NCBI GenBank assembly: GCA_964495325.1
Contig: CAZBVI010000002.1
Location: 125,729 to 189,728 of the forward strand
DNA: 64,000 nt
Origin: an uncultured bacterium
Lineage (GTDB): Bacteria > Deinococcota > Deinococci > Deinococcales > Trueperaceae
Reading direction: 5' to 3'
Part shown: in pieces, positions 19,728 to 57,726 of the stretch
Layout of the letters: each line of letters begins with the position of its first letter
Position numbering within the stretch: position 1 is the stretch's first letter
Translations under genes and position numbers: made by a program
The notes under the pieces: model-generated
Told to the model about the DNA's origin: nothing
The model's database searches: none
What the model saw: the letters and a program-made list of their open reading frames with translations, nothing else

Positions 19728-21542
19728 TCAGGCCGTGAGGGCGAAGGCTTCACACTCCCGGCCCTCGGTCGACTCCTCGTACAGGCGTGCCTCGAACTGG
19801 ATGACGCTGCACTCGCTGTTTGATTCGATGCTCAGTTCGGTAGCCCTGGGGCAGCTGAACCAGTAATCGAACCGGCTGTTCAGCGGCAGCAGCATTTCCT
19901 GACCGAGCACGGCGCAGGGAAGCGCTGGGGCCATGACCACGCGTCTGCCACCGTCGAGCCGGAGGCTGAGCGGAACCGCGTCACCAGTGAAGCCAACCCC
20001 CAGCACGTTCTGAACCCGCGCTTCGCCGCTCAGGTGCAGGATGTGGACTCCTTCTGGGAGCAGGAGCCTGACGCCGCACGGCTCCTGCTCCTGACCGAGC
20101 CGGACGAGTGCGAAGCTCGTGCCGGAACTCTCCGCACCGGAACCGAACGGGCCCGCTACCTCAACGAAGCTGTCCTGTGCGGCAGGGCGCACCACTCTGG
20201 TCGGTCCGGGCCCGAGCCGGCTGCCGTTACCGGCCTGTTCCTCCACCGCCACTCTTGCCCAACCCGCCAGGGAATCCAGGAGCCTGTCCGTATCGACAGG
20301 TTCGCCCGCCATGTGAAGGTGCAGCAGTGACGCGAGGGCCTCCCCGTTCGCTTCCATCTCGCGGCTGCGCCGTCGGTGATGACTCCTCGCCACGCCTTCG
20401 GGCAGGCAGTTGTTCAGAAGCCTGCGGATGAACGGGGACGTGAAACACCAGCCCTCGTTACCGAACTCGAGCCAGCGTCGGTCGACCAGCTCCCCGAGGC
20501 AGTCATCCGCGGACGCGGATTCGCTCAGATACTTCCCGGCGAGCTGCGGACGGATGGAGACGAGTGATTCGACCAGCTGACGGCATGCCGGCCTCAGCTT
20601 CCGCAGCTCCAGCTCAAGTGCGGCCCGGTATTTCTGCGGTACCGGCAGGTTCTGCTCATCGGAAAGTGCACTTATCTCCGCGAGGTAGCCCAGGTGCCCG
20701 GCACATGCGAGGAACAGACGGGCGGCCGCGTCGAACTCCATATCGCGTAGCCGAGTACCCGATCGGGCCGCCAGCCACGTGCCTGCGGGCAGCTTCTGGT
20801 AACTGATGCTTGCCGCGGGCAGCCGATAGCGCAGCTCTAGCAGCTCGTCAGGATCGTTCCCCAAGTAAGGACGCTCGAAGACCCAGATCGAGCGTTCGTC
20901 CCTGATGATCCTGCCTACCAGCTCAGCGGGGTATGGGGGAGCGGCATACCGCAGTCCCGCACCCGTGGCGCCCAGTGGAAGCACCGGCGAACGCATCCGC
21001 TGGCTGAGAGCCTCAACGAAACCTGAGGCGCTCTCGAAAGGCTCCGGCTCAACAACAAGCAGGTGCGGTGCCCGCAGGGTGGCCGCCAGCCGTTCTATGA
21101 GCGGACTGTTCCCGAACGTCACGGTGCCAGCAGCCCGCAGCCTGGCGCGCCGCCATCCCAACCACTCCTGAAAGTCGGCACCGCCCAGGTCATCAAGTCC
21201 CTCCAGGAGGGACACTGCTGAGTTCCCCTGCAGGTCCAGCCTCAGACCGGGCGGCAGCTCCAGCGGATCCTGGTAGCGGGCAAACTGCGGGACTCCTGCC
21301 GCGGCCAGCTCACGGTTGATGGCGTTGATCTCGACACGCAGGTTGGCAAGCGGATCCGGGCCATCCCAGAGCAGGTCTGCGAGCCTGTCCCGGAGCGTGG
21401 GTCCCTCGAACGCCAGGAAGTAAAGGACGGCCAACGCCTTGCGGCGCAGGTGTACGCGACCGTCCGGTCCGCTCAGCCGCACCGGTCCACATATCGGCAA
21501 ATAAAGACATCGAGCCCCACCGGTTTCAGAACTTGCCGTCAT
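19728..21542 (-). CDS. SARP/OmpR-type winged-helix transcriptional regulator with a long uncharacterised C-terminus
   Basis: The N-terminus VRLSGPDGRVHLRRKALAVLYFLAFEGPTLRDRLADLLWDGPDPLANLRVEINAINREL follows the SARP/BTAD-family DNA-binding pattern. The remaining roughly 500 aa has no clear Walker A and ends in a beta-rich domain. Confidence 0.6.
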   Translation of the reverse strand: MTASSETGGARCLYLPICGPVRLSGPDGRVHLRRKALAVLYFLAFEGPTLRDRLADLLWDGPDPLANLRVEINAINRELAAAGVPQFARYQDPLELPPGLRLDLQGNSAVSLLEGLDDLGGADFQEWLGWRRARLRAAGTVTFGNSPLIERLAATLRAPHLLVVEPEPFESASGFVEALSQRMRSPVLPLGATGAGLRYAAPPYPAELVGRIIRDERSIWVFERPYLGNDPDELLELRYRLPAASISYQKLPAGTWLAARSGTRLRDMEFDAAARLFLACAGHLGYLAEISALSDEQNLPVPQKYRAALELELRKLRPACRQLVESLVSIRPQLAGKYLSESASADDCLGELVDRRWLEFGNEGWCFTSPFIRRLLNNCLPEGVARSHHRRRSREMEANGEALASLLHLHMAGEPVDTDRLLDSLAGWARVAVEEQAGNGSRLGPGPTRVVRPAAQDSFVEVAGPFGSGAESSGTSFALVRLGQEQEPCGVRLLLPEGVHILHLSGEARVQNVLGVGFTGDAVPLSLRLDGGRRVVMAPALPCAVLGQEMLLPLNSRFDYWFSCPRATELSIESNSECSVIQFEARLYEESTEGRECEAFALTA

Positions 21543-21560
21543 CGTTCTACCCCCTATCTG

Positions 21561-21669
21561 CTTAACGTTTACGTAAATACGCGTGTTAAGCCTTACCCCC
21601 GCAGCGTGAAGTGGTTATACAACTTTTTCGCTTATCGCGTGCGGAGGCACCCCGGCCTGCTTCACGCTG
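21561..21669. promoter_or_regulatory. Divergent control region with nested palindromes and a 10-bp inverted repeat
   Basis: CTTAAC (21561-66) pairs with GTTAAG (21585-90), enclosing TTACGTAA (21569-76) and ACGCGT (21579-84). CAGCGTGAAG (21602-11) pairs with CTTCACGCTG (21660-69). Confidence 0.3.
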
Positions 21670-21826
21670 GCTAAACGGCCCACACCCTAAGCTCATTTCG
21701 AACTCATCAGTCGACCGGCAGCTGGCAGCAGCTTCAGCCGGAACGGGGAAGGAGGAAGCACTGGCCACGCCGGCCGGACATCATCTGCCGATAACGAATC
21801 TTCGTCCTCTCACGAAAGGAACCACG

Positions 21827-22672
21827 ATGCTCAAGAAAATCGCCGTAGCCGCAATCGCCATCCTCGCTTGTTTCAGCTTCGCGCAGATCACCGTCTCCCC
21901 CACCGTTGGAAACGGGGACGACCAGTTTGATACCGGGGCCAACTCGGCCTCAGTCCAGCAGAACGTGAACCTGATCTTGCCGGCAGCTGTTGCACTGCAC
22001 CTTGACGTCAGCGAGCTGGACTTCGATCTGGAGCTCCTGGGCAGTGAGGACGCACCTTACGTGTGCGTGTATGGCAACTCGCTTACGGATCTCCCAGGTG
22101 GGAGCTTCAATGGTCAAGAGCAGACGCTTCCACTTGGCACCTCCTACTGGGTCGCAAATACATGGTCACTCTCGGAAGCGCCAATCATCGAGATCCTGGA
22201 CGCAGCCGGCCTCGCCACGTCCTACCCACCAGCCGCATTTGACGGCGAAGCTGATTCACTAATTGGTGAATCTCCGCAGGGCGAGCTGATCCCCGGATCA
22301 AAGAATCACTTCGTGTGCTATCAGACCTTCATTCTGCAGAAGTTCAGCAACCACAGCAACTGGGAGCTGACGGTCACACGTGGGGGCACGGGCGCGTTTG
22401 ACATGTACATCCAGGACAACACTTTCTGTTCGTTCAATGCCGTTACTCCGACCGGATTCTTCCAGATCGCACAGGACCAGACGATCAACCTTCTGCCGGC
22501 CTCGCTTACCGGCGGGACAACAGGTGCGCTGGCAGAGGCCTGCGGTCAGGACGGCAAGAGCTGGCTGGATGACCTGGTGGTAGTGGCGGTCAAGGTCAAC
22601 GGTGACCCGTACGGCACGAACACCGCAACCCTGACCTACACGATCCAGTCTGTTTCGCCGAACGAGAACTGA
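21827..22672 (+). CDS. Secreted beta-rich protein, candidate major subunit of a surface structure
   Basis: ATG at 21827 preceded by a GAAAGGA Shine-Dalgarno sequence. Signal peptide MLKKIAVAAIAILACFSFAQ. 281 aa with four Cys and no recognised family. Confidence 0.7.
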   Translation: MLKKIAVAAIAILACFSFAQITVSPTVGNGDDQFDTGANSASVQQNVNLILPAAVALHLDVSELDFDLELLGSEDAPYVCVYGNSLTDLPGGSFNGQEQTLPLGTSYWVANTWSLSEAPIIEILDAAGLATSYPPAAFDGEADSLIGESPQGELIPGSKNHFVCYQTFILQKFSNHSNWELTVTRGGTGAFDMYIQDNTFCSFNAVTPTGFFQIAQDQTINLLPASLTGGTTGALAEACGQDGKSWLDDLVVVAVKVNGDPYGTNTATLTYTIQSVSPNEN

Positions 22673-22713
22673 GCCGATCCCCGTTCACGACACAGTACTG
22701 CGACACGCTCAGT

Positions 22714-22744
22714 GGTGTGGACAGCTCGGGGGGCTGTCCACACC
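22714..22744 (+). promoter_or_regulatory. Intercistronic hairpin after the first gene of the secreted operon
   Basis: Perfect 12-bp inverted repeat GGTGTGGACAGC / GCTGTCCACACC with a 7-nt loop. No U-tract follows. Confidence 0.6.
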
Positions 22745-22776
22745 ACATCCCCTGTGAGTGGAAGGAACGAACCAGC

Positions 22777-23661
22777 ATGCGAAATCCAACACCTATCTTC
22801 AGAATCATTCCCGCCCTCGTCGCACTCTGTATCGGCCTGGCACCCGCCGCTCTGGGACAGGGCGCCGTCGGAGTCCAGCCGAACGCAGTCATCCTTGAGG
22901 TTGCACCGGGCGGAAGCGTCACCCAGGAGCTCCGGATCGACAACCCTGGCAGCAATCCCCTTGGCCTCACCATCTACCCCGGGGACTGGCAGCTGGACGG
23001 GAGCGATCAGATCAACTATTATCCCGCAGAAACGCTTGAACGCAGTGCCGCGGGCTGGCTGACTCTCAGTGCCACCGACCTGTCCCTGGCGAGCCGCGCC
23101 AACACGACCCTCACTTACACGGTTCAGGTGCCTGATTCAGCGACAGCGGGTACTTACTGGGCAGCGGTCTTCATCGAAGGAGTGGACCCGGCCACCGAAG
23201 GCAGTCAGGCGCTCGCCGCCTTCAGGCTCCGCACCGCCCACACTTTCTACATCAACGTGCCGCCAATCCAGCACGCCGGTTCGATCCTCGGCATCTTCGG
23301 CACGCCTCCGCAGACCCCCGAACAGCCCTACCGGATGCAGCTCAGCTACATGAATGAGGGCAACACAGTTCAGATCCTCAACGGGCAGATCGACATTCGC
23401 ACCGTGACAGGCGAACTGGTAGATACCGTTCCTGTCGAGCGCGAAGTGGCGCTGCCTGGCCTGGTAAAGAGCCTGAACATCGCGCTGTACGGTCCGCTGC
23501 CGGCCTCCGAGTACCTGGCCCTGGCTGTCCTCAACTACGGCGACTTCACCCGGGATGTCGCCGCCGAGCTCGTGTTCGAAGTTCCGATCGACCTTGCCGC
23601 GCCTGAGTTCTACTTCGAAGGCGCACGGGAGCGCGCCAGCACCCTGGACGGCACGCCATGA
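22777..23661 (+). CDS. Secreted two-domain beta-sandwich-like protein, candidate periplasmic chaperone
   Basis: Signal peptide MRNPTPIFRIIPALVALCIGLAPAALGQ. The mature N-terminus VQPNAVILEVAPGGSVTQELRIDNPGSNPLGLTIYPGDW resembles the first strands of PapD-like/Ig-fold chaperones. This is pattern resemblance only. Confidence 0.6.
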   Translation: MRNPTPIFRIIPALVALCIGLAPAALGQGAVGVQPNAVILEVAPGGSVTQELRIDNPGSNPLGLTIYPGDWQLDGSDQINYYPAETLERSAAGWLTLSATDLSLASRANTTLTYTVQVPDSATAGTYWAAVFIEGVDPATEGSQALAAFRLRTAHTFYINVPPIQHAGSILGIFGTPPQTPEQPYRMQLSYMNEGNTVQILNGQIDIRTVTGELVDTVPVEREVALPGLVKSLNIALYGPLPASEYLALAVLNYGDFTRDVAAELVFEVPIDLAAPEFYFEGARERASTLDGTP

Positions 23662-24164
23662 TCCGGCACTCCTCCAGAACCAGGGTCCTTCGCCTCCTCG
23701 CCCTGCTGGCACTCACGGGTTCGGTTCTGGCCCAGGCGACCTGGCCCGTCCATGTACTTATCCCCGAGCTCATCACGGTGCGCGCACCCAGCGACACTCT
23801 CAGTTTCGATCTCGAGACGCAGAACTACCCGCCACTGGAGTTTCCGGCAACGTTCTCGGGCGGCACCCTGCCAGTGCAGGTTCATTCGAGCAGTGAGCAA
23901 TCATGGACTCTCAGCCTCGACGTGAGCGACATCATCGATGACGCGGGCGTCCTGTTGGTGCCCGCCAGCCAGGTCATGTACCGCGTCAACGAGGGTGGCT
24001 GGCTGCGCGCGAATGGGTTCCCGCAGGTCGTACACGCACAGAACGGCCCGACTCTGGGCTGGATGGAGTTCTCCCTCGAGTTCATGCTCGAGCTGACAGG
24101 CACGGAACGGGCCGGCTCTTACGAGGTCACCGCGACAATCACTGCCCAGACTGAAGCGTTCTGA
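23658..24164 (+). CDS. Small secreted protein, candidate minor subunit (paralogue of the 281-aa protein)
   Basis: ATGA overlap with the previous gene. Signal peptide LLALLALTGSVLAQ. It shares the LIP..h.h....L.FDLE motif and a T-x-T-x-T-x-Q C-terminus with the 21827..22672 product. Confidence 0.65.
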   Translation: MIRHSSRTRVLRLLALLALTGSVLAQATWPVHVLIPELITVRAPSDTLSFDLETQNYPPLEFPATFSGGTLPVQVHSSSEQSWTLSLDVSDIIDDAGVLLVPASQVMYRVNEGGWLRANGFPQVVHAQNGPTLGWMEFSLEFMLELTGTERAGSYEVTATITAQTEAF

Positions 24165-27115
24165 TGGTGCAGCGGGCACTTCTGGCATTGGCCATGCTGG
24201 TGACCACGGGAGCAGTTGGCGCCCAGGTCGAGTTCGGGAGCATGCCTGCGCTGGAAGCACTGCCTGGCGAGTACTTAACCTTCGCCGTTCCGATCTCCGG
24301 AGACGGCAGTGTGACTGTCGTGGTCACCGCACCGGACGGCTGGCACGTGGTTACGGACACGCGAGAGCTTCAGCTGAGAGGCACCAGGCAAGTTCCGTTC
24401 ACCGTGCGGGTTCCGGCTACCGCCCTGGCGGGTACGCGCGCACAACTGGAGCTCAGCGCAACCGGTGAAGCGGGCAGAGCGCAAACAAGCATCGGCGTAA
24501 CCGTCGGGGGCAGCGCGGGAGTGAGCGTCACGGAAACAACTGATCCGCAAGCATCGCCCAACGAGGTGCTTGCGTTCGAGATCAATGTCACTAATGCCGG
24601 CAACCAACCGGAAGTGATCTCGCTCAGGGCATACAGCGCCTCCCGGCAGGTACATGTGAGCCCGACTCAGCTTGTCCTCGAGCCATTTCAGTCGGCTGCG
24701 GCCACCGTGAGCATCCCGGTTCAGGGCACAGTCGGCCAGGGATATCGAATGACGGTCACAATCGAGGCAACTAGCGGTAACACCGGCGGTGTCACGACTC
24801 GCGATGTAACCGCTGTTTACCGGCGAGCCGGTACCCGGTCTGCCGTGGCGAACCCGGACCCACGGCTGCTCTTGCGCATCACTTCCGGGGTCAACACCGG
24901 AGTCGAGGTCAGTGAAGAGGGCGCAGCGCCGTTCCTCAACTGGAGCGTGCAACCGGGCCTGAGCGGCGAGCTGTCGGACTTTGTGCAGCTGAACGTCAGC
25001 ACCGGTTCGTTCCGTAATGCGCCGGGGTCGGTGTTCTCCGCGCCGCAGCACGCCCGGATCGAACTCACTGCCCAGGAGTGGCAGGCCGCAATCACCTTCG
25101 GTCACGGACGCTTCGGACTGAGTGGCGCGATGCGAGCAGCCGGTTGGCGCTTCAACGTCGGTGGGCACTACTTTCGTCCCGCTGAAGCGGGCCTGTTCCA
25201 ACTGCAGGCTGGCGCGGTCAGCCAGACCCCAGGGCTCGACCTGCAGTTTCACGGCAACCTCATGCTGGCCGGTGAGGCCCATTCCGAATCCCTGTCCGGC
25301 CTGTGGCGCCGGGCATTGAGCAACCAGTTGCAGCTGGGAATCGGCCTGGGACTGAGCGGCTATGCCGATGCGCAAACGGACTACCGCCTTTATCTCACCG
25401 TCAATCAGAACTTGAGGTGGCTGACTCAGAACTTCGACCTCGTCCAGTCGATCAGTACGACTCCGGGCCTGGGGCAGCACAGCGTCAGCCTCACCGGCGG
25501 CAGCCGCTCGGCCGGCCCTTTCGGCATCCGTTTCCTGGCAAGGCTGAACGTCGGGCCCACGCGCAGTACACTGTCTACGGGTGTGCAGCTGACCAGCGTT
25601 CCTGTCCAGAACCTGCGGCTGTCGGCCGGCGTGATCCACTCCACCGCAGACTTCGGCGCTGGCCCAGCCAACCTCCGCTTGCAGGCCGGCGCGGCCATGC
25701 GGTTCAGTGCGGGCTCGGGCGCAGTGACAGGAAGCATCAGCGGCAACCTCGAGTCAAGTCTTGCCCTGAACGAACATGCCCGGCCGAGCAACGGTTTCAG
25801 GATTACGGCCGAGACCCACTTCAGGAAAGTATCTCTGCGGCTCGGCGTCAGCCGGGACTCCCGTGCAGCCCACGGCGAGCGCGAAGCCGAACTGCGTGTG
25901 GTCTACAGCCTCGGAGGTTCGCTCGCGCTCGGTCCGGGATCCGAGGTGGAGGCAAGCTTCAACCATCAGCGCGGCACCATGACCGGTACCAGCTTCGCGA
26001 TCCGCTGGCGGCAGGAATGGAGCGCACGCTTGTCCAGCGACGTGACGTGGAGGGTCAGTGCCCGGACCAACAGCTTCGCGATCGGCGTCGCAGCTACTGA
26101 TATCTTCACTCCCGGGCTCAACCTGGGCTTCGGTTACGGCCTGGTGCTAACGCCCGCCGGCACCACCCACCGGTTCAGTGCCGGGATCAGCTACACCTGG
26201 CTCATCCCGTTCTCGACCCCTGCACCACTTGTGGACGCCTTCGGCGGTCGCGAGACCGGCGGCTTCACCGGCGTCGCCTTCATCGATCGCAACCTGGACG
26301 GCCAACGCGACATCACGGAAGAACGCCTTGCAGGCATCACGATCGTTGCTGGAGACACTGCCACCGTGACTCAGGCAGACGGCAGCTTCAACCTGCGCGT
26401 GCCACCTGGCCCGTATACGCTGGAGTTCAAGGGTTTGCCCGCCACGCTCGGCTTCACCGGTGATCCGGCCATCGAGGTGCACCTGAACAGCGTCGTGCCC
26501 CGTGATTTGAGCTTCTCGCCCGTAAGCACCATGCGGATAGTCGCGTTCGCCGACCTTGACCGTGACGGCCAGCCCGGCGTGGGCGAACCCTTCCTGCCAG
26601 GCATCCAGGTTGAGCTGCAAGGCCCCCGCACCGCGCATGGAGTGACCGATTCGAGCGGGACAATCTGGATCACCAACCTGACCCAGGGAAGCTACACACC
26701 TGTCGTCAACCAGTCGAGCCTGCCCGCAGGGCACGAGCTCACGCGCCGCCTGCAGGCGATAACCGTTGAGCCACCGGCCGGCCCTCCCGTGCTGTACATC
26801 CCGGTGGCGCCACTGATTCGCGACGTCGTCACGACTTTCCAGTCCGGCACACTGGCCCTGGTGGCCTGGACTTCCGACGGGTCAACTGTCGCAGGCAGGA
26901 ACCTGACCGTGTTCGCACGCGTCCACGGCGAGGTCGATACCGTCCAGGTCGAGCTGTTCGACGAGGTCCTCTCCTTGCTGCAACAGGGGGACGTATGGAT
27001 CGGTCACCTTACGGTCCCGCCGCAGGCCGGCATGACGAGCGGCGTGGTGCGGGCCACGGGCGCCGGCCAGCAACAGGAGGTCGGCATCCAGGTGTTCGTG
27101 ACGCTGCCTGAGTAG
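24164..27115 (+). CDS. Large secreted protein with N-terminal Ig-like domains, a central beta-barrel-like segment and C-terminal SdrD-B/CarboxypepD_reg-like domains (usher-like architecture)
   Basis: TGATG overlap with the previous gene. Signal peptide MVQRALLALAMLVTTGAVGAQ. A segment of about 450 aa shows amphipathic strand periodicity and ends in GISYTWLIPF. Later come FTGVAFIDRNLDGQRD and GSFNLRVPPGPYTLEF (Cna-B/SdrD-B-like). Confidence 0.65.
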   Translation: MVQRALLALAMLVTTGAVGAQVEFGSMPALEALPGEYLTFAVPISGDGSVTVVVTAPDGWHVVTDTRELQLRGTRQVPFTVRVPATALAGTRAQLELSATGEAGRAQTSIGVTVGGSAGVSVTETTDPQASPNEVLAFEINVTNAGNQPEVISLRAYSASRQVHVSPTQLVLEPFQSAAATVSIPVQGTVGQGYRMTVTIEATSGNTGGVTTRDVTAVYRRAGTRSAVANPDPRLLLRITSGVNTGVEVSEEGAAPFLNWSVQPGLSGELSDFVQLNVSTGSFRNAPGSVFSAPQHARIELTAQEWQAAITFGHGRFGLSGAMRAAGWRFNVGGHYFRPAEAGLFQLQAGAVSQTPGLDLQFHGNLMLAGEAHSESLSGLWRRALSNQLQLGIGLGLSGYADAQTDYRLYLTVNQNLRWLTQNFDLVQSISTTPGLGQHSVSLTGGSRSAGPFGIRFLARLNVGPTRSTLSTGVQLTSVPVQNLRLSAGVIHSTADFGAGPANLRLQAGAAMRFSAGSGAVTGSISGNLESSLALNEHARPSNGFRITAETHFRKVSLRLGVSRDSRAAHGEREAELRVVYSLGGSLALGPGSEVEASFNHQRGTMTGTSFAIRWRQEWSARLSSDVTWRVSARTNSFAIGVAATDIFTPGLNLGFGYGLVLTPAGTTHRFSAGISYTWLIPFSTPAPLVDAFGGRETGGFTGVAFIDRNLDGQRDITEERLAGITIVAGDTATVTQADGSFNLRVPPGPYTLEFKGLPATLGFTGDPAIEVHLNSVVPRDLSFSPVSTMRIVAFADLDRDGQPGVGEPFLPGIQVELQGPRTAHGVTDSSGTIWITNLTQGSYTPVVNQSSLPAGHELTRRLQAITVEPPAGPPVLYIPVAPLIRDVVTTFQSGTLALVAWTSDGSTVAGRNLTVFARVHGEVDTVQVELFDEVLSLLQQGDVWIGHLTVPPQAGMTSGVVRATGAGQQQEVGIQVFVTLPE

Positions 27116-27158: not shown

Positions 27159-27563
27159 TTACTGCGAGTCCATAGTCAACCAGGCACTGAACTCGAAGGC
27201 TTTGGTCAGTGGCTCCACGGCCGGGCAACTGGTACCGCCGCGTTCCCAGGAGATCGAGCATACTGCTCGCGTGGACGCATTCGGTGTGGCCGTTACAGTC
27301 ATGGTGTAGATGCCGGGCTGAAGCGTCACCGCAGAGCGCTCGGGCAAGTCAGGGATGGTTGGCCCGGTTCCACCGCTGATCGATTCCGAGGCGACAACGT
27401 CGCCTTCGTCAGAGTGAATAGTTACCTCCAATGAGTTTTGACCATATGTGTAGACAACGCTTGAAGCGATGGCAGTACCAGCGCTGTTCTGGCTGCTCCC
27501 GCTCCTGGAGTCCTGGCCGACACGCCCATCTACTCCGAACTCGACCACAGTGGGAGATACCAA
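27159..27563 (-). CDS. Hypothetical beta-rich protein without a signal peptide, possibly a gene remnant
   Basis: 134-aa ORF containing QPGIYTMTVTATP, an Ig-like strand. It lacks an N-terminal signal and has no obvious Shine-Dalgarno sequence. Confidence 0.3.
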   Translation of the reverse strand: MVSPTVVEFGVDGRVGQDSRSGSSQNSAGTAIASSVVYTYGQNSLEVTIHSDEGDVVASESISGGTGPTIPDLPERSAVTLQPGIYTMTVTATPNASTRAVCSISWERGGTSCPAVEPLTKAFEFSAWLTMDSQ

Positions 27564-28016: not shown

Positions 28017-28626
28017 ATGGGAGCATACCCGGCCGGCGAACCTGATCTTGCCGAGTCGTTCGAAGCCACAGAGGGTGGCAGGCTTTGGACCTTCAAGCTC
28101 CGTGAAGGAGTCCAGTTTCACGGCGGCTATGGTGAACTGAAGGCTTCCGACGTGAAGTTCACCTTCGACCGCGTCCGCAACCCCGATTTTGTTTCGCCCT
28201 GGTTGTCGCAGTTCACCAACGTCGAGGAGATTCTCGTGCTCGACGATTACACGGTGCAGGTTGTGCTCGAGGAAGCCGATCCGCTGTTCCTCATCAACAT
28301 CGCCGGACACACGCGCGGCGCGATCCTGAACGAGCGGGCCGTCACCGAGCTTGGCTCGGCTTTCCGCACGAATCCGATCGGCACGGGCCCATTCCAGTTC
28401 GATGATTACGTCTCAACGCAGAGTCTGCGCGTCACGCGCTTCGACGACTACTTCCGGGCCGACGAGGCCGCGATTCTGGAAGCGACCCAGTTCCACTACG
28501 GGCCAGAGGTGTCCTCCCTCTACATCGGCCTGCAACGCGGCGACTACGACGTAGCCGGCGGCGTCGACACCCGCCAGTTCGCCGAGCGTACCGAGTCCCT
28601 GGGCCTGAACGTGATCTCGTACGGCC
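28017..28626 (+). pseudogene. Internal fragment of a family-5 ABC substrate-binding protein
   Basis: It lies in the same frame as the regulator fragment. LAESFEATEGGRLWTFKLREGVQFHGGYGELKASDVKFTFDRV is an SBP_bac_5 segment. There is no signal peptide, and about 300 C-terminal residues are missing. Confidence 0.6.
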
Positions 28627-28917
28627 TTGGCGCATCCGTCGCCCTTTCCAAACATCATCAGCCCCATCATCGTTGCGGCCACCATCCAGCTTGCCTTCGC
28701 CATCCGCACTGAGGCAGGTATCAGCTTCCTCAGCCTTGGAGTGTCTCCGCCCACCCCGACGTGGGGGAACATGATCAGCGAAGGCAGGAACTACCTGCAG
28801 TTCGCCCCGTGGGTGGCCACCAGCGCCGGTACCGCTATCATGCTTGTCATTCTTTCCTTCAACCTGCTTGGCGACATCCTGCGCGACGTCGTCGATCCGC
28901 GCGGCAACCGCCGCTGA
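28627..28917 (+). pseudogene. C-terminal fragment of a DppC/OppC-type permease
   Basis: IIVAATIQLAFAIRTEAGISFLSLGVSPPTPTWGNMISEG...NLLGDILRDVVDPR. Only the last 90 aa or so of a permease survives, in a different frame from the SBP fragment. Confidence 0.6.
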
Positions 28918-41482: not shown

Positions 41483-43210
41483 ATGCCGGATGTGAGCCAG
41501 CCGGACCCGACCAAGCCCCTCATCGTTCATGCGGACCGGACGCTGATGCTGGAAACGTTCAACGACCTGGCCGAGCCAGCCCGGGCGGCCATCGCCCCGT
41601 TCGTCGAGCTGGAGAAAAGCCCGGAGTACCTGCACACTTACCGCATCTCCCCTCTGTCGCTGTGGAACGCGACCAGCGCGGGCTTCACGGCCGAACAGAT
41701 GCTGCGGGCCCTGCAGAGCTTTGCCAAGTTCCCACTGCCGCAGAACGTGGTCACGGATATCAAGGAGCTGTCCGGCCGCTGGGGCCGACTGCGCCTGTTA
41801 GGTGAGGAAGGCCGCCTAGTCTTACGTGTGGATCCGGCAGACGCGTCGCTGCTGCTGGAGCTCGGGAGTCACGACCACGTGCGGCCACTGCTCGGGGAAC
41901 GCCTTGGCGAGCACGTTACACAGGTGCCCCTGGCAAACCGGGGCAGCCTCAAGCAGGCGCTGCTGGCGCTCGGCTGGCCGGTGCAGGACCTGGCCGGCTA
42001 TCAGGCGGGGGAAGCACTGGACATCTCGCTTGCGAAGCACTTGGACGTGCGCCCGTATCAGGAGGCCGCTGCCCAGGCCTTCTACCGGGCGGGCAGCAGC
42101 GAGGGCGGCTCCGGCGTTGTGGTGCTGCCGCCAGGCTCCGGCAAGACGGTCGTGGGCATGGCCGCCATGTCGCTGGTGGGCCAGCGGACGCTTGTGCTGA
42201 CCACCAACCGGACCAGCACCGGACAGTGGCAGCGGGAGTTGCTCGCCAAGACATCGCTGCAGCCCGAACAGGTCGTCGAGTACGGTTCCAGGACCAAGGG
42301 CATCGGCGCCGTCACGCTCTGCACCTACCAGATGCTGACCACCAGGAAACGCGGCGCTGAGCCCGGAGCCCAAGGCGAGTACCCGCACATGCAGCTGTTC
42401 CGTGACCACCAGTGGGGCCTGGTCATCTATGACGAGGTCCACATGCTGCCTGCCCCGGTCTTCAGGCTGACGGCCGAGCTGCAGGCACTGCGTCGCCTTG
42501 GGCTGACGGCCACGCTCATCCGGGAGGACGGGCGCGAGGGCGACGTGTTCAGCCTCATCGGCCCGAAACGCTACGACGGGGCGTGGCGCGAGCTTGAGCG
42601 GGACGGCTGGATCGCCAGCGTTCACTGCACCGAGGTCCGCCTGGCGCTCGACGACGCGGGCCGCCGCGACTACGCGCTCACAGACCCCCGGCTCCGCTTC
42701 CGCCTGGCGGCCGAGAACCCCCGCAAGCTGAGCCTGATGCGCAGGATCCGGCAGCTGCACGCTGGCGAGCCGACCCTGATCATCGGCGTCTACCTGAGCC
42801 AGCTGAAGCAGATCGCCGCCGCCCTGGACGTGCCCCTGGTGACGGGCGAGACGCCGCAGGAGCGTCGCGATGCGTTGTTCGACGATTTCCGGGCCGGCCG
42901 CATCCGTACGCTGGTGCTCTCGAAGGTCGGAAACTTTGCCCTGGACCTCCCCGACGCCTCGGTGATGATCCAGGTTTCGGGCACGTTCGGCTCCCGGCAG
43001 GAAGAGGCGCAGCGGATGGGTCGGCTGCTGCGGCCGAAAGCACCCGGCCAGGGCGCCCAGTTCTACTCGCTGGTCACGCGCGAGACCGACGAGGAGACCT
43101 TTGCCCACAACCGCCAGCGGTTCCTGACCGAACAGGGCTACACTTACCGCATCATGAGCGAGGACGAGTGGCTCGACCCGCAGCCGCCGCGCCTCGAACT
43201 GCTCAACTGA
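41483..43210 (+). CDS. xpb: XPB/ERCC3/Rad25-type SF2 DNA helicase
   Basis: DVRPYQEAAAQAF, Walker A LPPGSGKT, DEVH, and GLTATLIREDGRE, the R-E-D motif diagnostic of XPB. Also QRMGRLLR, plus an N-terminal damage-recognition-like domain. The start is taken at ATG 41483; the ORF opens at 41453. Confidence 0.85.
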   Translation: MPDVSQPDPTKPLIVHADRTLMLETFNDLAEPARAAIAPFVELEKSPEYLHTYRISPLSLWNATSAGFTAEQMLRALQSFAKFPLPQNVVTDIKELSGRWGRLRLLGEEGRLVLRVDPADASLLLELGSHDHVRPLLGERLGEHVTQVPLANRGSLKQALLALGWPVQDLAGYQAGEALDISLAKHLDVRPYQEAAAQAFYRAGSSEGGSGVVVLPPGSGKTVVGMAAMSLVGQRTLVLTTNRTSTGQWQRELLAKTSLQPEQVVEYGSRTKGIGAVTLCTYQMLTTRKRGAEPGAQGEYPHMQLFRDHQWGLVIYDEVHMLPAPVFRLTAELQALRRLGLTATLIREDGREGDVFSLIGPKRYDGAWRELERDGWIASVHCTEVRLALDDAGRRDYALTDPRLRFRLAAENPRKLSLMRRIRQLHAGEPTLIIGVYLSQLKQIAAALDVPLVTGETPQERRDALFDDFRAGRIRTLVLSKVGNFALDLPDASVMIQVSGTFGSRQEEAQRMGRLLRPKAPGQGAQFYSLVTRETDEETFAHNRQRFLTEQGYTYRIMSEDEWLDPQPPRLELLN

Positions 43211-43227
43211 GGCACCGGAGGCCCACG

Positions 43228-43488
43228 ATGTCCCAGACCACGCCCTCACCGGATCATGACGAAGTGCACCCGGTTAGCGACGCACTCGGCATGCTGCACC
43301 GCGACCTGACCGTCATCGAGGTAACTGACGCCACTGACCTCACCAGCCTGCTGTCGGACACTAGAATGGCCGAGCTCGTCTTGGCCCGCATCGGAACCAC
43401 CGCCGCCGTGGTGGAACCCCGAAACGTGCCCAAGCTCCTGGCGGCGCTCCAGAAGGCCGGCCACACTCCGACGGTGCTGGGCGCGTGA
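43228..43488 (+). CDS. Small conserved-looking hypothetical protein (86 aa), translationally coupled inside the XPB operon
   Basis: A GGAGG Shine-Dalgarno sequence precedes the ATG at 43228. The stop overlaps the GTG of the next gene (GTGA). Confidence 0.6.
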   Translation: MSQTTPSPDHDEVHPVSDALGMLHRDLTVIEVTDATDLTSLLSDTRMAELVLARIGTTAAVVEPRNVPKLLAALQKAGHTPTVLGA

Positions 43489-46061
43489 GCAGGCAGGAGC
43501 AGCTGCTCGGCATCTTCCTGGACTCGCTGGAGCACGAAGACAGCGAGCAACCGGACGAACCCCTTGTGACGCAGGACCCCGGACTGTTCTCCTTCGAGCG
43601 CCGGCTCGACCTGATGACGATGCCTCAGCTGACGCGCGTCATGAGGCGTTACGCTCCCGCCAGGCGGGCCACCACCCGGGCGGCGGCCATCAAGGCGATC
43701 AAGGGGGCGCTCGCGTCCCCGGACCTGCTCGCGGCGCTTATAGCGGGCCTGTCGCCGTTCGAGCGGCTGGTGCTGGAGGAGCTCAAGCGGCGCGGGGGCA
43801 AAGCCAGCGGCTGGCAGGTCTTCATGACCGCGGTCCTGCACGGCGCGGAACCCGAAAACGCCGCGGGAGACGGGTCAGCAAACTATGACTACCAGCGTTC
43901 TTTTGGCATCCGCTCGATCGCGGCCCGTGAGCTGGCGGAGCTCTACGATGACGGGCTCCTGCAGACCGGCAGGCTTCGTACCGACTGGTCCCGGTTCGGC
44001 TACAGCACTCACGCGGACGACATGGTGGGCGCCCCGCCACAACTGCTCAACCGGCTGAAACCGCGGCCGCGGCCCCCGGTAAAGAGGCTCACCCTCGAGC
44101 CGGCCGCCCAGGCCGTGCTGGATGCCCGGCATCCGGCGGCCGTCGTCCTGGAACTGCTGGACGTCCTGCAACTCGTCTCGAGCGAGGGCGGCCTGCACGT
44201 AACCAGGAACGGCGCGCTCGCCAAGCCGTTCCTGAAGCGACTCCACAAGGAGCGGCCCCACCTGGCGGACCGGCTCGCGCCCCTCCTGCTGCTGCTGTCC
44301 ATGCTCGGTTTCGTGCGGAAGCCGCACGATGACTCCGTACCGCAGCCCTGGCCACTCGTCCCGGGCGCAATCTCCGCTTTCCAGCGAATGCCGCTTCGCC
44401 TCATGTACGCCAAGCTGATCGACGCCACCGCCTCGGTCAACGACCCGGACATCGCCCTCGCGTGGGCCGAAAGCCCCTTCGGCACCAGCAGCATCGAACC
44501 GTTCTGGACGGCGATACTGCAGAGCCTGGTGGCGCTGCCCGACCATGGCGTCCCGGTCGAGGCGGCGGTCAACGGCCTCTGGGATCAGGTGCTTGCGAAA
44601 GCCTTCGGCGGCCGGGTACAGCACTGGCGGGACAACGCGAGGCATCTTGACCTGCTTGAGAGGCTGCTCCGCGAGTTCCTGCCTTCCATGGGCCTGATCG
44701 CCATTGGCGGCGAAGTAAGCGACATCAACGAACTGGTCCCGTTGATCGCACCCGCCGCCGGCCTGGCATGGTACGCCGAATCCCGTGCCATGGCCGAGGG
44801 CGCCTCGGCCATGCCGTCAATCGCCCTGACCGACGATGAGCAGCAGCTTGAGGCGTCGAGCCCGGCCCTGCTGATCCAGCCGAACTTCGAGGTGCTTGCC
44901 TACCTGGACCTGCTCACCTCCGGCGCGGTCCGGGCCCTATCCTGCGCCGGTATCGAGCGGCTGGACGCTCAAACAGCCACTTTCAGGATCGACCGGAACA
45001 GCGTCACCCACGCACTTGACTCGGGCATGGACGCAGCCGAGCTTCTGAGCCAGCTGGAGCGCCACGCCCCTGGTGTGCCGGAGAACGTGGCCGACGCCAT
45101 CAGGGACTGGGCGGCCCGGCGGGACCGGCTCAAGGTCCACACTGGAACCCGCCTCATCGAGTACCCGGACGAGGCCGCACGCGACGCCGCCCTGAAGCAC
45201 GTCGAAGGCGGCCGCGCGATCGCCGAAAGGTTCGTACTGCTCGCCGGGAACTCACCCGAGCCCCGCGTGGCTGCCGAACATGATTACCGCCCTGGCATCG
45301 AGCCCGCCCTCAAGGTCCGGGCCAACGGCACGATCCGTGCCGACGGGCCCCTCAACCTGCCGGCCCGAGCCGTCCTGAAGCAGCTCACCACGCAGACGGG
45401 CAAGCACACGTTCCGGATCACCGAAGACGCCGTGCGCGCGCCCGTGTTCCGGCAGAAGCTTCACGCGCTTCTGCAGGATCAGGCGATCAACGGGGTACCC
45501 CGGGAGCTGGCCGCCCTCCTGGCCGCCTGGTCCGGCCAGGCGCAGAAGCCGGTGGTGGCACCGGCCGTCCTGTTCCAGCATCCGGAGGCTGGCGCCTGGG
45601 CCACCAACCCGAAGTTCCGCGACCTGCTGGGCACCCAGCTGAGCCCGAGCACCTACCTGGTCGCTCCCGGCAAGGAGGCCGCGTTGCGGACGCTGCTGGA
45701 CGAGCTGGGTGTGGGCCATCAGTCCGAGTGGTCCGAGGGCGGACCCGCGGTCACCGCCATCCCGGGCGAGGGCGAACTCCAGACCGGGCTCAGCACCCGC
45801 AAGATGCGCGAGGCGCTTGAAGCTGCGATTGAAGCCGGGCACCACGTCGAGCTTCGCTACGCGCCGGAGAACGTGCGCTACACGCATCGCGGCTACAGCC
45901 GACGCAGCCCGGGCAAACTCCGCACCGAGTTGCTCATCCCGGAAAGCATCTCGTACGAGGGCTCGACGCCGTACCTGGATGCCTTGACCGCCAAAAGGAA
46001 GTCCGAGCGTTACATCCGGATCGGCTACATCGAGGCGATCGGCGTGCGGACGGCGGCGTAG
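43485..46061 (+). CDS. Large XPB-associated protein carrying a copy of the XPB N-terminal (DRD/helicase-associated) domain and a WYL-like C-terminus
   Basis: 858 aa. The segment ALLIQPNFEVLAYLDLL...TFRIDRNSVTHALDSGMDAAELLSQLERHAPGVPENVADAIRDWA parallels the XPB N-terminus PLIVHADRTLMLETF...TYRISPLSLWNATSAGFTAEQMLRALQSFAKFPLPQNVVTDIKEL. The C-terminal HHVELRYAP...LIPESISYEGSTPYLDALT...RYIRIGYIEAIGV fits the WYL-domain pattern. Confidence 0.7.
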   Translation: MSRQEQLLGIFLDSLEHEDSEQPDEPLVTQDPGLFSFERRLDLMTMPQLTRVMRRYAPARRATTRAAAIKAIKGALASPDLLAALIAGLSPFERLVLEELKRRGGKASGWQVFMTAVLHGAEPENAAGDGSANYDYQRSFGIRSIAARELAELYDDGLLQTGRLRTDWSRFGYSTHADDMVGAPPQLLNRLKPRPRPPVKRLTLEPAAQAVLDARHPAAVVLELLDVLQLVSSEGGLHVTRNGALAKPFLKRLHKERPHLADRLAPLLLLLSMLGFVRKPHDDSVPQPWPLVPGAISAFQRMPLRLMYAKLIDATASVNDPDIALAWAESPFGTSSIEPFWTAILQSLVALPDHGVPVEAAVNGLWDQVLAKAFGGRVQHWRDNARHLDLLERLLREFLPSMGLIAIGGEVSDINELVPLIAPAAGLAWYAESRAMAEGASAMPSIALTDDEQQLEASSPALLIQPNFEVLAYLDLLTSGAVRALSCAGIERLDAQTATFRIDRNSVTHALDSGMDAAELLSQLERHAPGVPENVADAIRDWAARRDRLKVHTGTRLIEYPDEAARDAALKHVEGGRAIAERFVLLAGNSPEPRVAAEHDYRPGIEPALKVRANGTIRADGPLNLPARAVLKQLTTQTGKHTFRITEDAVRAPVFRQKLHALLQDQAINGVPRELAALLAAWSGQAQKPVVAPAVLFQHPEAGAWATNPKFRDLLGTQLSPSTYLVAPGKEAALRTLLDELGVGHQSEWSEGGPAVTAIPGEGELQTGLSTRKMREALEAAIEAGHHVELRYAPENVRYTHRGYSRRSPGKLRTELLIPESISYEGSTPYLDALTAKRKSERYIRIGYIEAIGVRTAA

Positions 46062-55234: not shown

Positions 55235-57726
55235 CTTCAATGAGCAGCGACCGAAAGACGTTCCACCTCGTCGGCCACGGCCATCTGGACCCGGTGTTCA
55301 TGTGGCGCTGGCAGGAAGGCTACGAGGCCACCCGGGCCACGTTCAGGTCCGTGCTGGACCGCATGAGCGAGTTCGAAGCGTTCCGTTTCACGAGCACCAC
55401 GACCGCACTCCTGGTCGCCATCAGCGAGCACGACCCGGGCATGTTCGCAGAGATCCGCGAACGCGTGAACGAGGGCCGCTGGGAACTGGCCGGCGGCTGG
55501 TGGGTCGAACCCGACACCAATCTGGTGCATGGCGAGTCGCTGGTCCGGCAGGCGCTGTACGGCCAGCTGGAACTGCAGCGGCTGTTCGGCCGGTCCGCCC
55601 TGATCGGCATGAACCCCGACACGTTTGGCCACAGCGCTGTGGTTCCGCAGATCCTGAGCCAGACCGGCGCGATGGCATACGTCTTCATGCGGCCCGAGCG
55701 CTACGAAAGCCCGGTCGACGCGAACTCCTTCATCTGGGTGGGAGACAACGGTGCGGAGCTGCCGACTTTCCGGCTGCAGAGCTACAACGCTGTCCCATCC
55801 GATGCCCTGTTCTCGCAGGAACCCTTCTACGAAGGTGAGCATCAGCTGGTCGTCTACGGCGTCGGCAACCACGGTGGCGGGCCCACGAAGGCCGCTCTTC
55901 GCGAGATCGAGAGGCTGCGCGGCGAGACCCTGGACTACGCCTGCCTCGAGGACTTCTGTTCCGCTGCTGCCCCCGGCATCGCGCGGCGCGTGACCGGCGA
56001 GCTTCAGCACCACGCGCGCGGCTGCTACTCAACGATGGTCCGTCTGAAACAGGCCAACCGCAGGGCGGAATACGTGCTGCTGGCGGCCGAGCGCTGGGCC
56101 AGCCTGGCCAGTGCGCACGGCTACGGCTATCCCTCCGAATGCCTCACAGGCGCTTGGAAGGACGCCCTCTTCTGCCAGTTCCACGACATCCTGCCCGGCA
56201 CCTGCATCAGGGAGGCCGAGGAAGATGCCCTGCAGCAGCTCGGCCGGGCCGGGTTCACGGCCGCCGAGCTACTGCACTTCTCCGTTAACCACCTGGCTGC
56301 CGTCATAGACACTGCCACCGAGCACACGCCGTTCGTCCTCTTCAACTCCGCCTCCTCCGACCTGGACAGCGTGGTCGAGGTGGAAGTCGACATCCGTCAC
56401 TGGGACCGGGGCAACCCGACCAACAGCCAGACCTGGTGGAGGGAGCGCAACCTGCAGCTGTTCGACAGCGAGGGCAACACCGTTCCACACAACCTGGTCC
56501 AGCCCGCCGGCTTCGACGGCAACACCAACCGGCTGCGCATCGCCTTCCGCGCGTCCGTGCCAGCCCTCGGTTACAGGGTCTACCAGTACCGGGACTCACC
56601 ACCCACCGAGGCCTCCGATGGCTGCAGCACGCATGACGACGGCAACAGGCTCACCGCAAGCAACGGGTCCATCAGCATCACGGTCTGCAAGGATTCCGGA
56701 GCGATCCTCTCGTGGTTCGACCACACGCTTGGCTGCGAGCTACTGAGCGGGCCCTCTGACGTCCTGGCTGTCCATGACGACCCTGGTGACTCCTGGGCGC
56801 ATGAGCTGCGCAGCTTCAGCGAGCAGGTCGGTTCGTTCGGCCGGGCCCGCGTCACTGTCGCGGAGGAAGGCCCCGTTCGCACCGTAATCATGGTCCGCTC
56901 TACTTACGGACGCAGCGAAGCAGTCCGTTGGATTGCAGTGCCCGCATCCGGCTCCGAGGTGGCCATCGAGACGCGCATCAACTGGCAGGAACACCGCAAG
57001 GCGCTCAAGTCGAACTGGCAGCTGAACCTGTCCCAGTGCCGGTCAGTCAGTGGGACGCCCTACCGGGCAGTCGAGCGCACCCCAGGCTCGGGTGAGGAAC
57101 CCGGCAGCGAGTGGCTCACCCTCACCGGCGACGCCCGCGACGACCGGGGCCGCTGGCTGCCCGGTGGCTGGCAATTCGCGAACGACAGCTGCTGGTCGTA
57201 CGACGTCAACTCGAAGTTCCGCCGCTACAGCTGGGGACTCGGTGACACCTCGCTCGGCCTCACGCTCCTGCGCAGCCCCATCTACGCCTTCCACGAACCC
57301 CACGAGCCGCTACCTGACCGGCATTACGACTACCAGAACCAGGGCTGGCACACGTTCCGCTTTACCGTCCGGGCCGGCGAGCCACAGGGTCCCGCAGCCG
57401 CGGTGCGGGCCGGCGAGCTGCTCAACCACGAGCTGATCGTCGTCAGAGAGCACCAGCACCCTGGCAAGCTGCCACGGCAGCACGGGTTCCTGGAGCAGGC
57501 GGCGCCCGGCGCCGTGCTCACGGTACTGAAGCAGGCCGAGGACAACGGTGGTTTTGTCATGCGCGCGATCGATTACGGCGAGGGCGGCCCGGCCAGTTTC
57601 AGGGTCGCAACGCTCGGGCTGATCGCTGAGGCCGACCTGGCCCCGTCAGAGATCCGGACCTGGCGAGCCGGCCCCGGCACAACCCGGCAGGTGAACCTGT
57701 TGGAAGAGCCCCAGGAGGACAAGTGA
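55231..57726 (+). CDS. Alpha-mannosidase, glycoside hydrolase family 38
   Basis: FHLVGHGHLDPVFMWRWQEGY, MNPDTFGHS and FHDILPGT. The length of 831 aa is typical of bacterial GH38. Confidence 0.85.
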   Translation: MTSMSSDRKTFHLVGHGHLDPVFMWRWQEGYEATRATFRSVLDRMSEFEAFRFTSTTTALLVAISEHDPGMFAEIRERVNEGRWELAGGWWVEPDTNLVHGESLVRQALYGQLELQRLFGRSALIGMNPDTFGHSAVVPQILSQTGAMAYVFMRPERYESPVDANSFIWVGDNGAELPTFRLQSYNAVPSDALFSQEPFYEGEHQLVVYGVGNHGGGPTKAALREIERLRGETLDYACLEDFCSAAAPGIARRVTGELQHHARGCYSTMVRLKQANRRAEYVLLAAERWASLASAHGYGYPSECLTGAWKDALFCQFHDILPGTCIREAEEDALQQLGRAGFTAAELLHFSVNHLAAVIDTATEHTPFVLFNSASSDLDSVVEVEVDIRHWDRGNPTNSQTWWRERNLQLFDSEGNTVPHNLVQPAGFDGNTNRLRIAFRASVPALGYRVYQYRDSPPTEASDGCSTHDDGNRLTASNGSISITVCKDSGAILSWFDHTLGCELLSGPSDVLAVHDDPGDSWAHELRSFSEQVGSFGRARVTVAEEGPVRTVIMVRSTYGRSEAVRWIAVPASGSEVAIETRINWQEHRKALKSNWQLNLSQCRSVSGTPYRAVERTPGSGEEPGSEWLTLTGDARDDRGRWLPGGWQFANDSCWSYDVNSKFRRYSWGLGDTSLGLTLLRSPIYAFHEPHEPLPDRHYDYQNQGWHTFRFTVRAGEPQGPAAAVRAGELLNHELIVVREHQHPGKLPRQHGFLEQAAPGAVLTVLKQAEDNGGFVMRAIDYGEGGPASFRVATLGLIAEADLAPSEIRTWRAGPGTTRQVNLLEEPQEDK

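Follow-up and report, generated by a model that had tools for sequence, protein, structure and literature searches.

The lineage Deinococcota has an outer membrane, and the locus described here raises the question of what a set of exported proteins does in such an envelope. The window, i.e. the whole stretch of DNA that was analysed, comprises 64,000 nucleotides (nt) from an uncultured bacterium of the Trueperaceae (GenBank assembly GCA_964495325.1, contig CAZBVI010000002.1, positions 125,729 to 189,728 of the forward strand). It contains, between positions 19728 and 27115, four consecutive plus-strand genes, named P1 to P4, and a divergent gene encoding a 604-amino-acid (aa) protein; the homologous loci compared are designated by L-numbers (L002 etc.). 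P1 to P4 constitute a conserved exported four-protein module, which includes a periplasmic protein with a chaperone fold, similar to the WxLIP proteins of Firmicutes, and a large barrel protein of usher-like architecture. On balance, the five genes are probably a self-contained system by which a diderm cell builds or displays a protein structure on its outer surface, with a logic like that of chaperone-usher systems and different parts.

An earlier sequence-only reading had suggested a surface-fibre assembly operon with chaperone-usher-like logic. The architecture of P2 and P4 supports this logic, whereas the 28 strands of P4 and its lack of a plug are unlike ushers. The searches placed none of the proteins in a known pilus or adhesin family, the structure models contain a barrel as well as immunoglobulin-like (Ig-like) folds, and the order of the four genes, together with the linked gene of about 600 aa, is conserved across distant genomes according to neighbourhood comparison. 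The contrary outcomes, which had been set beforehand as refuting the reading, were not observed.

Gene organisation of the exported module

P1 (21827-22672, plus strand) encodes a 281-aa secreted subunit, recognised from its open reading frame (ORF), signal peptide and family alignment. It is followed on the same strand by P2 (22777-23661), a 294-aa periplasmic protein with two Ig-like domains, characterised with AlphaFold2 (AF2), Foldseek and profile searches, and by P3 (23658-24164), a 168-aa secreted subunit supported by its ORF and a family hidden Markov model (HMM). P4 (24164-27115), a predicted outer-membrane protein of 983 aa, was described with Pfam, AF2 and Foldseek. As read from the translations, P1, P2, P3 and P4 carry Sec-type signal peptides. 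Each leader combines a basic n-region with a hydrophobic core and conforms to the -3/-1 rule. Cleavage would leave Gln at the mature N-terminus, the motifs being SFA/Q (P1), ALG/Q (P2), VLA/Q (P3), and VGA/Q (P4). P2, P3 and P4 are predicted to be translationally coupled, with a stop-start overlap ATGA at 23658 for P2/P3 and TGATG at 24160-24164 for P3/P4. The gene positions, signal peptides and couplings of the sequence-only reading were reproduced from the ORF list and the sequence.

The spacer between P1 and P2 (107 nt) has a predicted fold of -47.2 kcal/mol (z = -3.1), and none of 200 shuffled sequences was as stable. The strong hairpin previously noted after P1 is therein located at 22712-22746 (plus strand), with a perfect, GC-rich stem of 16 bp. 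It lacks a T-tract and was therefore missed by the terminator scan, which found no T-tract terminator after P1 or after P4. Strong hairpins of unrelated sequence were found at the same position after P1 in L010, L011/L013, and L002. Because the structure is kept across loci without sequence conservation, it is probably functional. It is a candidate attenuator or mRNA stabiliser within the operon, setting the ratio of subunit to machinery. Neither tRNA genes nor Rfam families were detected in the window.

In P4, Pfam detected SdrD_B and CarboxypepD_reg C-terminally and, weakly, NEW3/Ig N-terminally; the 604-aa protein, P1, P2, and P3 gave no match above threshold. When the five proteins were compared by sequence with Pfam, NCBIfam and the PDB, the Ig-type domains of P4 were the only matches. 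The statement of the sequence-only reading that none of the four products could be matched to a known family holds at threshold level for P1 to P3. It needs correction in that P2 appears to be a distant WxLIP relative and the subunits are WxL-like at motif level.

P2, a two-domain periplasmic protein similar to WxLIP

A word-indexed protein search for homologues of P2 yielded 15 clusters, which were used as the AF2 alignment. The resulting model consists of two beta-sandwich (Ig-like) domains with a pLDDT of 81.6. In the Foldseek search against the PDB, the top matches were the WxLIP structures of Enterococcus faecium, 9i25_C and 9i1y (free and bound to a long WxL protein, E 3e-10), followed by the pilus chaperones CfaA, YadV, FimC, DraB, CupB2, Caf1M, CsuC, and PapD (E 1e-9 to 1e-7). 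TM-scores were 0.45-0.54 for the pilus chaperones and modest overall (0.4-0.54), which is usual for hinged two-domain proteins.

The sequence comparisons point in the same direction for WxLIP, and not for PapD. In hhalign, the P2 family aligned with six Firmicute WxLIPs taken from plasmids at 87.5% probability (E 3.6e-6, 212 columns), and with FimC plus YadV at 1.5%. The P2 HMM ranked the six WxLIPs first to sixth among the 56 ORFs of the Firmicute loci, and reciprocal HMM matches link the P2 family and WxLIP. EfmWxLIP1 was the best match of the P2 family profile in the PDB (E 0.012), across both domains. Sub-threshold matches to DUF916 (PF06030) were present in nine of the 15 P2 family members (best E 4e-4), and P2 of the window is below the Pfam cut-off for both DUF916 and DUF3324 (PF11797). 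Pfam searches of P2 and 14 relatives with a limit as loose as E<=10 showed neither PapD_N nor PapD_C. From these comparisons, P2 is judged to be a distant sequence relative of WxLIP (DUF916-DUF3324) and not a member of the PapD family. It fits a distant WxLIP homologue, not a family member by curated threshold. The PapD-like character assigned to P2 by the sequence-only reading is thus retained for the fold, which matches pilus chaperones, and is given up for the sequence kinship.

Firmicute WxLIPs end in a transmembrane helix (see also PMC10599100). A C-terminal transmembrane helix was not found in P2 or its relatives, neither in the alignment nor by DSSP, and a short acidic polar tail is present instead. 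P2 would therefore be free in the periplasm.

Proteins of this type are abundant. A HMMER search with the P2 profile detected 10,460 representative clusters at E<=1e-3, 3,175 at <=1e-10, and 59 at <=1e-30. The best 150 clusters are mostly 255-300 aa in length and span both domains. Sampled members of the superfamily showed recurrent weak matches to PF06030 and PF11797, one of them above the PF06030 cut-off, and one member originates from a metagenome-assembled genome (MAG) of the Elusimicrobiota.

The P2-like protein of Deinococcus deserti (L037, plasmid 2, NC_012529.1 88292-89062) is labelled 'FimB/Mfa2 family fimbrial subunit' in RefSeq. The label is based on a 58-residue match to PF08842 (21.7 bits against a cut-off of 21.2). 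PF08842 had no match in P2 of the window or its 14 relatives, and NCBIfam gives the label no support. The name is probably misleading, and it was discounted. Apart from this label, the module shares with the type V pili (Mfa/Fim) of Bacteroidota a two-domain beta-sandwich protein; unlike type V pili, the module proteins lack lipoprotein signals.

During the plasmid searches, an unannotated frame 72% identical to WxLIP1 of E. faecium was found in PLSDB entry CP069367.1 (101788-102435), labelled as a Klebsiella pneumoniae plasmid. It is by far the nearest plasmid match, which is odd for a Klebsiella replicon, and CP069367.1 may be a mislabelled or mixed-culture Enterococcus sequence.

P4, a large barrel protein of usher-like architecture

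The word-indexed search for P4 homologues retrieved five full-length clusters, and a repeat with the alignment added none. The AF2 alignment of P4 is shallow for this reason, and the model built from the five sequences reached a pLDDT of 76 and a pTM of 0.43. After the signal peptide (aa 1-20), assigned from the sequence, the model shows a pair of Ig-like domains at the N-terminus (aa 22-219; nt 24227-24820). They are followed by 28 antiparallel strands (aa 235-683; nt 24866-26212), the last of which ends in GISYTWLIPF, and then by a short helix. Three C-terminal Ig-like domains with DxNxDGxxD loops of the SdrD_B/CarboxypepD_reg type (aa 699-980; nt 26258-27103), also detected by Pfam, complete the protein; all these features are on the plus strand. 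The strands are consecutive and amphipathic, with a mean length of 12 residues, and are joined by turns of 2-8 residues and one of 16. GISYTWLIPF at the end of the last strand is kept in four of the five homologues. This is in agreement with the strand segment and the Ig flanks described by the sequence-only reading, with Pfam matches that are clear for the C-terminal flank and weak (NEW3/Ig) for the N-terminal one. Since the host belongs to the Deinococcota, with their outer membrane, a barrel protein is meaningful in this locus.

In the Foldseek search with P4, the best matches after eukaryotic multi-Ig ciliary proteins were the ushers FimD/PapC (E 2e-12 to 2e-11), with alignments of about 780-800 columns. 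TonB-dependent receptors and LptD ranked below the ushers. In hhalign, the first Ig domain of P4 and that of P2 are similar (81%, partly inflated by signal peptides). P4 homologues are full-length across the Deinococcota, including D. deserti (98.8% over 738 columns). The similarity of the large Opitutae proteins to P4 extends over both terminal sets of Ig domains and the start of the barrel, and in L025 and L035 the C-terminal domains alone align.

Similar to the chaperone-usher pili (Fim/Pap; CFA/I-ECP; Csu), the module has a major subunit with a hairpin, a periplasmic protein of two Ig domains, a minor subunit and an Ig-flanked barrel, and the Foldseek neighbours of P2 and P4 are chaperones and FimD/PapC, respectively. 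Archaic chaperone-usher systems have been reported in Deinococcus-Thermus (PMC4654587). The module might thus be a highly diverged member of this superfamily, e.g. of the archaic sigma class, a relationship favoured by the folds of P2 and P4, which resemble PapD-like chaperones and FimD/PapC, respectively. However, none of the module components has a detectable sequence relationship to these systems. No Pfam match to PapD_N/PapD_C, Usher, or the SCPU/fimbrial families was obtained for any family member, the subunits are not of fimbrial or SCPU type by profile, and hhalign gave <=0.5% for P4 against FimD/HtrE besides the low value for P2, which is closer to WxLIP. The predicted barrel of P4 also differs from the usher, with 28 instead of 24 strands, very short loops and no plug domain or insert, and it is combined with two N-terminal (NEW3/CARDB) and three C-terminal (SdrD_B/CarboxypepD_reg) Ig domains. 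Membership in the classical or archaic chaperone-usher families was rejected in view of Pfam and hhalign, and the reading of the module as a highly diverged member of this superfamily is very improbable.

The small subunits P1 and P3

P1 consists of a short N-terminal strand, a linker rich in G, D, N and S, and a conserved strand V.Q.VNLILP.AVALHLDVSEL.FD. It further contains four Cys, an SNWELTV motif and the C-terminal sequence ATLTYTI. According to HMM searches, the P1 family is confined to loci of Deinococcota. P3 is characterised by the motifs QATWPV.VLIPE.ISVR.PSD.LSFDL, SS..SWTLSL, and ELTG.E.AG.Y....T.TA. The P3 HMM retrieved small proteins beside P2-like genes in L025, in L034 (Elusimicrobiota), and in the Opitutae loci L020-24 (E 6e-8 to 3e-3), with zero reverse-strand decoys. 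P3 is therefore of a subunit type shared by every lineage examined.

Searches of Pfam and the PDB gave no relatives for the P1 and P3 families. Profile matches in the PDB to nanobodies and AgCarC2 were dismissed as chance. The proposal that P3 is a paralogue of P1 is weakly supported, as hhalign aligned the N-terminal 48 columns alone (72%) and the P1 HMM misses P3, and it was not adopted. A conserved lipobox was not present in the small proteins, and the Cys of the P1 signal peptide is not conserved.

The subunits have three features in common, in the order of an early strand ending in ...L.F[DG], the motif h.h.h.S...W.L.h, and a C-terminal G.Y...h.h.h strand. Firmicute WxL proteins possess the same three features in the same order. 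The first WxL motif corresponds to SWTLSL in P3 and NWELTV in P1, and in the second motif Y or T replaces W (TLTYTI, TATITA). Alignments of the subunit HMM to four WxL proteins were weak but in register at motifs 1 and 2. With the subunit HMM, the nine WxL ORFs took ranks 3 to 11 among 56 ORFs (p = 7.5e-6), compared to p = 0.015-0.056 in the cross-controls. Judged from these motifs and ranks, homology of the subunits to WxL domains appears likely, though unproven.

Alternating hydrophobic residues occur at the mature N-termini, as ATWPVHVLIP in P3 and as ITVSPTV plus the linker in P1. These patterns are suggestive, and only suggestive, of N-terminal strands that may serve as donor strands.

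Distribution and conserved gene order

More than 20 independent loci from several phyla keep this gene order, a conservation well above what chance would give. The order in L002 is 297-293-166-1059 aa, with a P4 merely 29% identical to that of the window. L011 possesses the divergent gene, here of 603 aa, followed by 298-286-238-186-1003 aa. The extra 238-aa subunit of L011 (4262-4978), between P2 and P3, belongs to the P1 family (HMM E 8e-13) and not to the P3 family; subunit number and type therefore vary within Deinococcota. In L010 and L014 the divergent 603-aa gene is followed by P1, P2 and further genes. The genes flanking the module vary from locus to locus, which indicates that it moves as one block.

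When species-representative genomes were scanned with the P2 alignment, the module was detected in a Trueperaceae MAG, in Thermaceae MAGs and in uncultured bins, and N-domain matches were obtained in MAGs of Opitutae and Opitutaceae. Cluster look-ups and the plasmid search revealed the module on megaplasmids of cultured Deinococcus, where all genes are annotated as 'hypothetical protein'. Deinococcus sp. D7000 encodes 291-300-189-1018 aa and a homologue of the 604-aa protein, and D. psychrotolerans S14-83 encodes 291-281-175-1058 aa. A reduced module of 164-256-839 aa is present in D. deserti VCD115. Plasmids of Deinococcus sp. NW-56 and AB2017081 also carry P2 homologues.

The combination of small subunits, a P2-like gene and a complete protein of 839-1093 aa was found in Deinococcota, in Opitutae and in two unassigned metagenomic contigs (L025 and L035). 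In L025, four genes for small proteins are accompanied by a P2-like gene and by one for a protein of 1079 aa with SdrD_B/CarboxypepD_reg. In L035, the order is 197 aa, P2-like (367 aa) and 1077 aa, the last again of the SdrD_B/CarboxypepD_reg type. In the Opitutae loci, a P2-like gene is accompanied by two or three small subunits and a large protein of 930-1090 aa. In the Elusimicrobiota locus L034, proteins of 185 and 165 aa accompany a P2-like gene and a large gene interrupted by the contig end. Pfam matches of the large protein to CarboxypepD_reg/SdrD_B were obtained in Deinococcota, L025, and L035.

Proposed function of the module

The system most similar to the module is the WxL/WxLIP (Csc) cluster of Bacillota (Enterococcus, Lactiplantibacillus, Listeria, Bacillus). 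In both, a two-domain protein of DUF916-DUF3324 type lies between small secreted beta-rich proteins; P2 is distantly related to WxLIP by sequence and structure, and the subunits have the first W-x-L motif and the C-terminal G.Y...T.T strand in the same register. P1 also resembles small WxL proteins in that a low-complexity linker tethers its short N-terminal strand. The systems differ in their hosts, which are monoderm for WxL and a diderm member of the Deinococcota for the module, with relatives in Trueperaceae, Thermaceae, Deinococcus, Opitutae, and Elusimicrobiota. Unlike the Firmicute loci, the module has no LPXTG protein, its P2 is without the C-terminal transmembrane helix, its subunits have Y, T or another residue instead of W in the second motif and are unmatched by Pfam WxL, and it adds the 983-aa barrel protein, which has no Firmicute counterpart.

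In the proposed mechanism, P2 would bind and stabilise P1 and P3 in the periplasm by beta-strand insertion, similar to the AF2 model of WxLIP, in which a beta-hairpin strand is predicted to insert into WxL (PMC10599100). P4 would form a 28-stranded outer-membrane barrel, whose flanking Ig-like domains may dock the complexes of P2 and subunits, and it would pass the subunits through or anchor them at the surface. P1 would be the bulk component, and probably the most abundant product, because its gene is first and is followed by the conserved hairpin. The 604-aa protein may control expression from the divergent promoter. Between an oligomeric or filamentous product and a non-polymeric surface complex, our analysis leans to the former; polymerisation into a fibre, and the chaperone and usher activities, are inferences.

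A non-polymeric envelope complex would be the diderm counterpart of WxL/Csc, with a stoichiometric complex of P2 and subunits tethered by P4 or linking the outer membrane to the wall. No fibre would be formed, and P4 would be an anchor or porin-like scaffold and not a conduit. Large envelope-tethering barrels, such as SlpA, are known in Deinococcus. By sequence, P2 is nearest to the WxLIPs, whose presumed role is to hold WxL proteins on peptidoglycan and not to polymerise them (PMC10599100, PMC9772566). The order subunit, WxLIP-like protein, subunit mirrors that of Firmicute loci, and the N-terminal strand of the P3 family is without special conservation, which agrees with a complex of this kind. 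However, P2 has lost the membrane anchor that positions WxLIP, and no SLH, LysM or other wall-binding domain was detected in P4 with Pfam and NCBIfam. Moreover, a major-subunit gene with an attenuating hairpin, and tandem subunit genes at other loci (four in L025), are typical of polymer systems, and ushers outrank all other barrels in the structural search with P4. We consider the non-polymeric complex unlikely, although a serious contender.

Several observations weigh against the proposed assembly or display module. PF00577 (Usher) was not found in P4 or in six other P4-like proteins, and hhalign against FimD plus HtrE revealed no usher sequence relationship. The P4 model has no plug-sized insert, its longest loop being 16 residues, and an unplugged pore of 28 strands therefore needs some other gate. 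Closure of the barrel is a prediction from the five-sequence model described above, and the barrel region is unalignable between Deinococcota and the most distant loci. The hhalign comparison of the subunit families with seven Firmicute small WxL proteins remained below 7% and was not significant, for which reason the subunits are not filed as WxL proteins, and Pfam WxL (PF13731) gave no subunit match. Incomplete-fold subunits and strand complementation are conjectural for P1 and P3. The function of WxL/WxLIP in Gram-positive bacteria is itself poorly defined.

A broader proposal, which we regard as possible rather than probable, is that the module represents the first example of an unrecognised and very widespread envelope assembly pathway of diderms, at least in Deinococcota, Verrucomicrobiota, and Elusimicrobiota, with sequence clusters in the thousands. 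In such a pathway, WxL-type subunits would be bound by a soluble chaperone of WxLIP type, and polymerised or exported via a new family of 28-stranded outer-membrane barrels by strand exchange. If so, the WxL loci and the module would be two versions of one ancient machinery, and the similarity to chaperone-usher pili would reflect convergence or very deep kinship. A further general export route for surface protein structures in two-membrane bacteria would be added if the reading is right. In enterococci, lactobacilli, and Listeria, WxL/WxLIP is important for adhesion and virulence, by an unclear mechanism; the diderm version, in which the binder is off the membrane and has a dedicated outer-membrane partner, points to a chaperone-like role for WxLIP. 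The module went unnoticed because every component is below curated family thresholds and labelled 'hypothetical'. In a literature search whose coverage excluded most subscription-journal papers, no diderm WxLIP or usher-like system was described.

The 604-aa gene and the divergent control region

The gene of the 604-aa protein (19728-21542, minus strand) is an ORF divergent to P1, and its product is predicted to be cytoplasmic. In eight loci, a homologue accompanies the module, lying upstream and divergent in L010, L011, L014, L015, and L019, and downstream in L002/L003 and Deinococcus sp. D7000. No Pfam, NCBIfam or PDB match was obtained for the 604-aa protein and three homologues, and the homologue of Deinococcus sp. 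D7000 gave Trans_reg_C alone, at E=0.17 (residues 17-66). By eye, residues 15-80 of the 604-aa protein resemble a winged helix of OmpR/SARP type, followed by a degenerate P-loop region, and the L011 homologue retains the P-loop-like GEPGSGRP. SARP-type regulators combine an OmpR-type winged helix (Trans_reg_C) with a following BTAD domain. The SARP assignment of the sequence-only reading has no profile support and was abandoned; the protein is a candidate regulator.

The adjoining of a large regulator gene is another similarity to the WxL/WxLIP loci, but the regulators are unrelated in sequence. Four of six Firmicute plasmid WxL loci (L026, L027, L029, and L031) have an adjoining gene for a helix-turn-helix protein, which is about 490-510 aa where complete (it is cut at the locus end in L031).

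The intergenic region between the 604-aa gene and P1 (21543-21826) contains the palindrome TTTACGTAAA at 21568-21577. In the alignment with L010, L014, and L011, a palindromic TTAACG-N4-CGTTAA is present at the same position in L010 and L014, and the conserved blocks CGTGAAGTGGTTATACA, GCTTCACGCT.GCTAAA, and GGAAAGGAGGAAG were found. The palindrome and the control region may act as an operator. The same region includes the purine-rich GGGAAAGGAGGAAG (21740-21760 in the window, and in L010 and L014), about 70 nt upstream of the P1 start and well away from the GAAAGG ribosome-binding site of P1. In L010, GGGAAAGGAGGAAG is directly followed by the ATG of a 21-codon frame, which is not so in L014 or the window.

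Genomic surroundings of the module

In the window, the module has an Opp-like transporter with an M14 peptidase on one side and an M24 peptidase on the other. This position is compatible with an outer-membrane uptake system, in which P4 would be a SusC/TonB-like or porin-type channel and P1 to P3 accessory substrate binders. CarboxypepD_reg domains also occur in SusC-type proteins, TIGR04056 matches P4 weakly (E 0.04), and TonB-dependent receptors are among the Foldseek matches of P4. However, the TIGR04056 match covers 40 residues of the CarboxypepD_reg domain only, and this domain is C-terminal in P4 and N-terminal in SusC. P4 has no match to Plug (PF07715) or TonB_dep_Rec and no TonB-box domain, its 28 strands contrast with the 22 of TonB/SusC transporters, and the small proteins lack a conserved lipobox. 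The flanking genes differ at every other locus, and the link to peptide use is therefore local. An uptake function is, all considered, improbable.

Fragments of an SBP_bac_5 peptide-binding protein (231 aa, compared to about 520 aa when intact) and of an ABC permease C-terminus (96 aa) were found at 28017-28917 of the window, shortly downstream of the module. Both resemble the pseudogenised remains of a second Opp-like transporter, and the module may therefore have been inserted into or beside a decaying peptide-uptake locus. Directly after P4, on the opposite strand, a 134-aa ORF without family assignment is present (27159-27563). Of the four assemblies of this contig, a single one (L007) has it annotated as a gene, and in the related loci L004 and L009 a META-domain gene is present at that position instead. 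The composition of the window is patchy, with a G+C content of 0.62-0.64 around the module, 0.54-0.58 at 30-42 kb, and 0.67-0.69 at 42001-46000 and 56001-60000.

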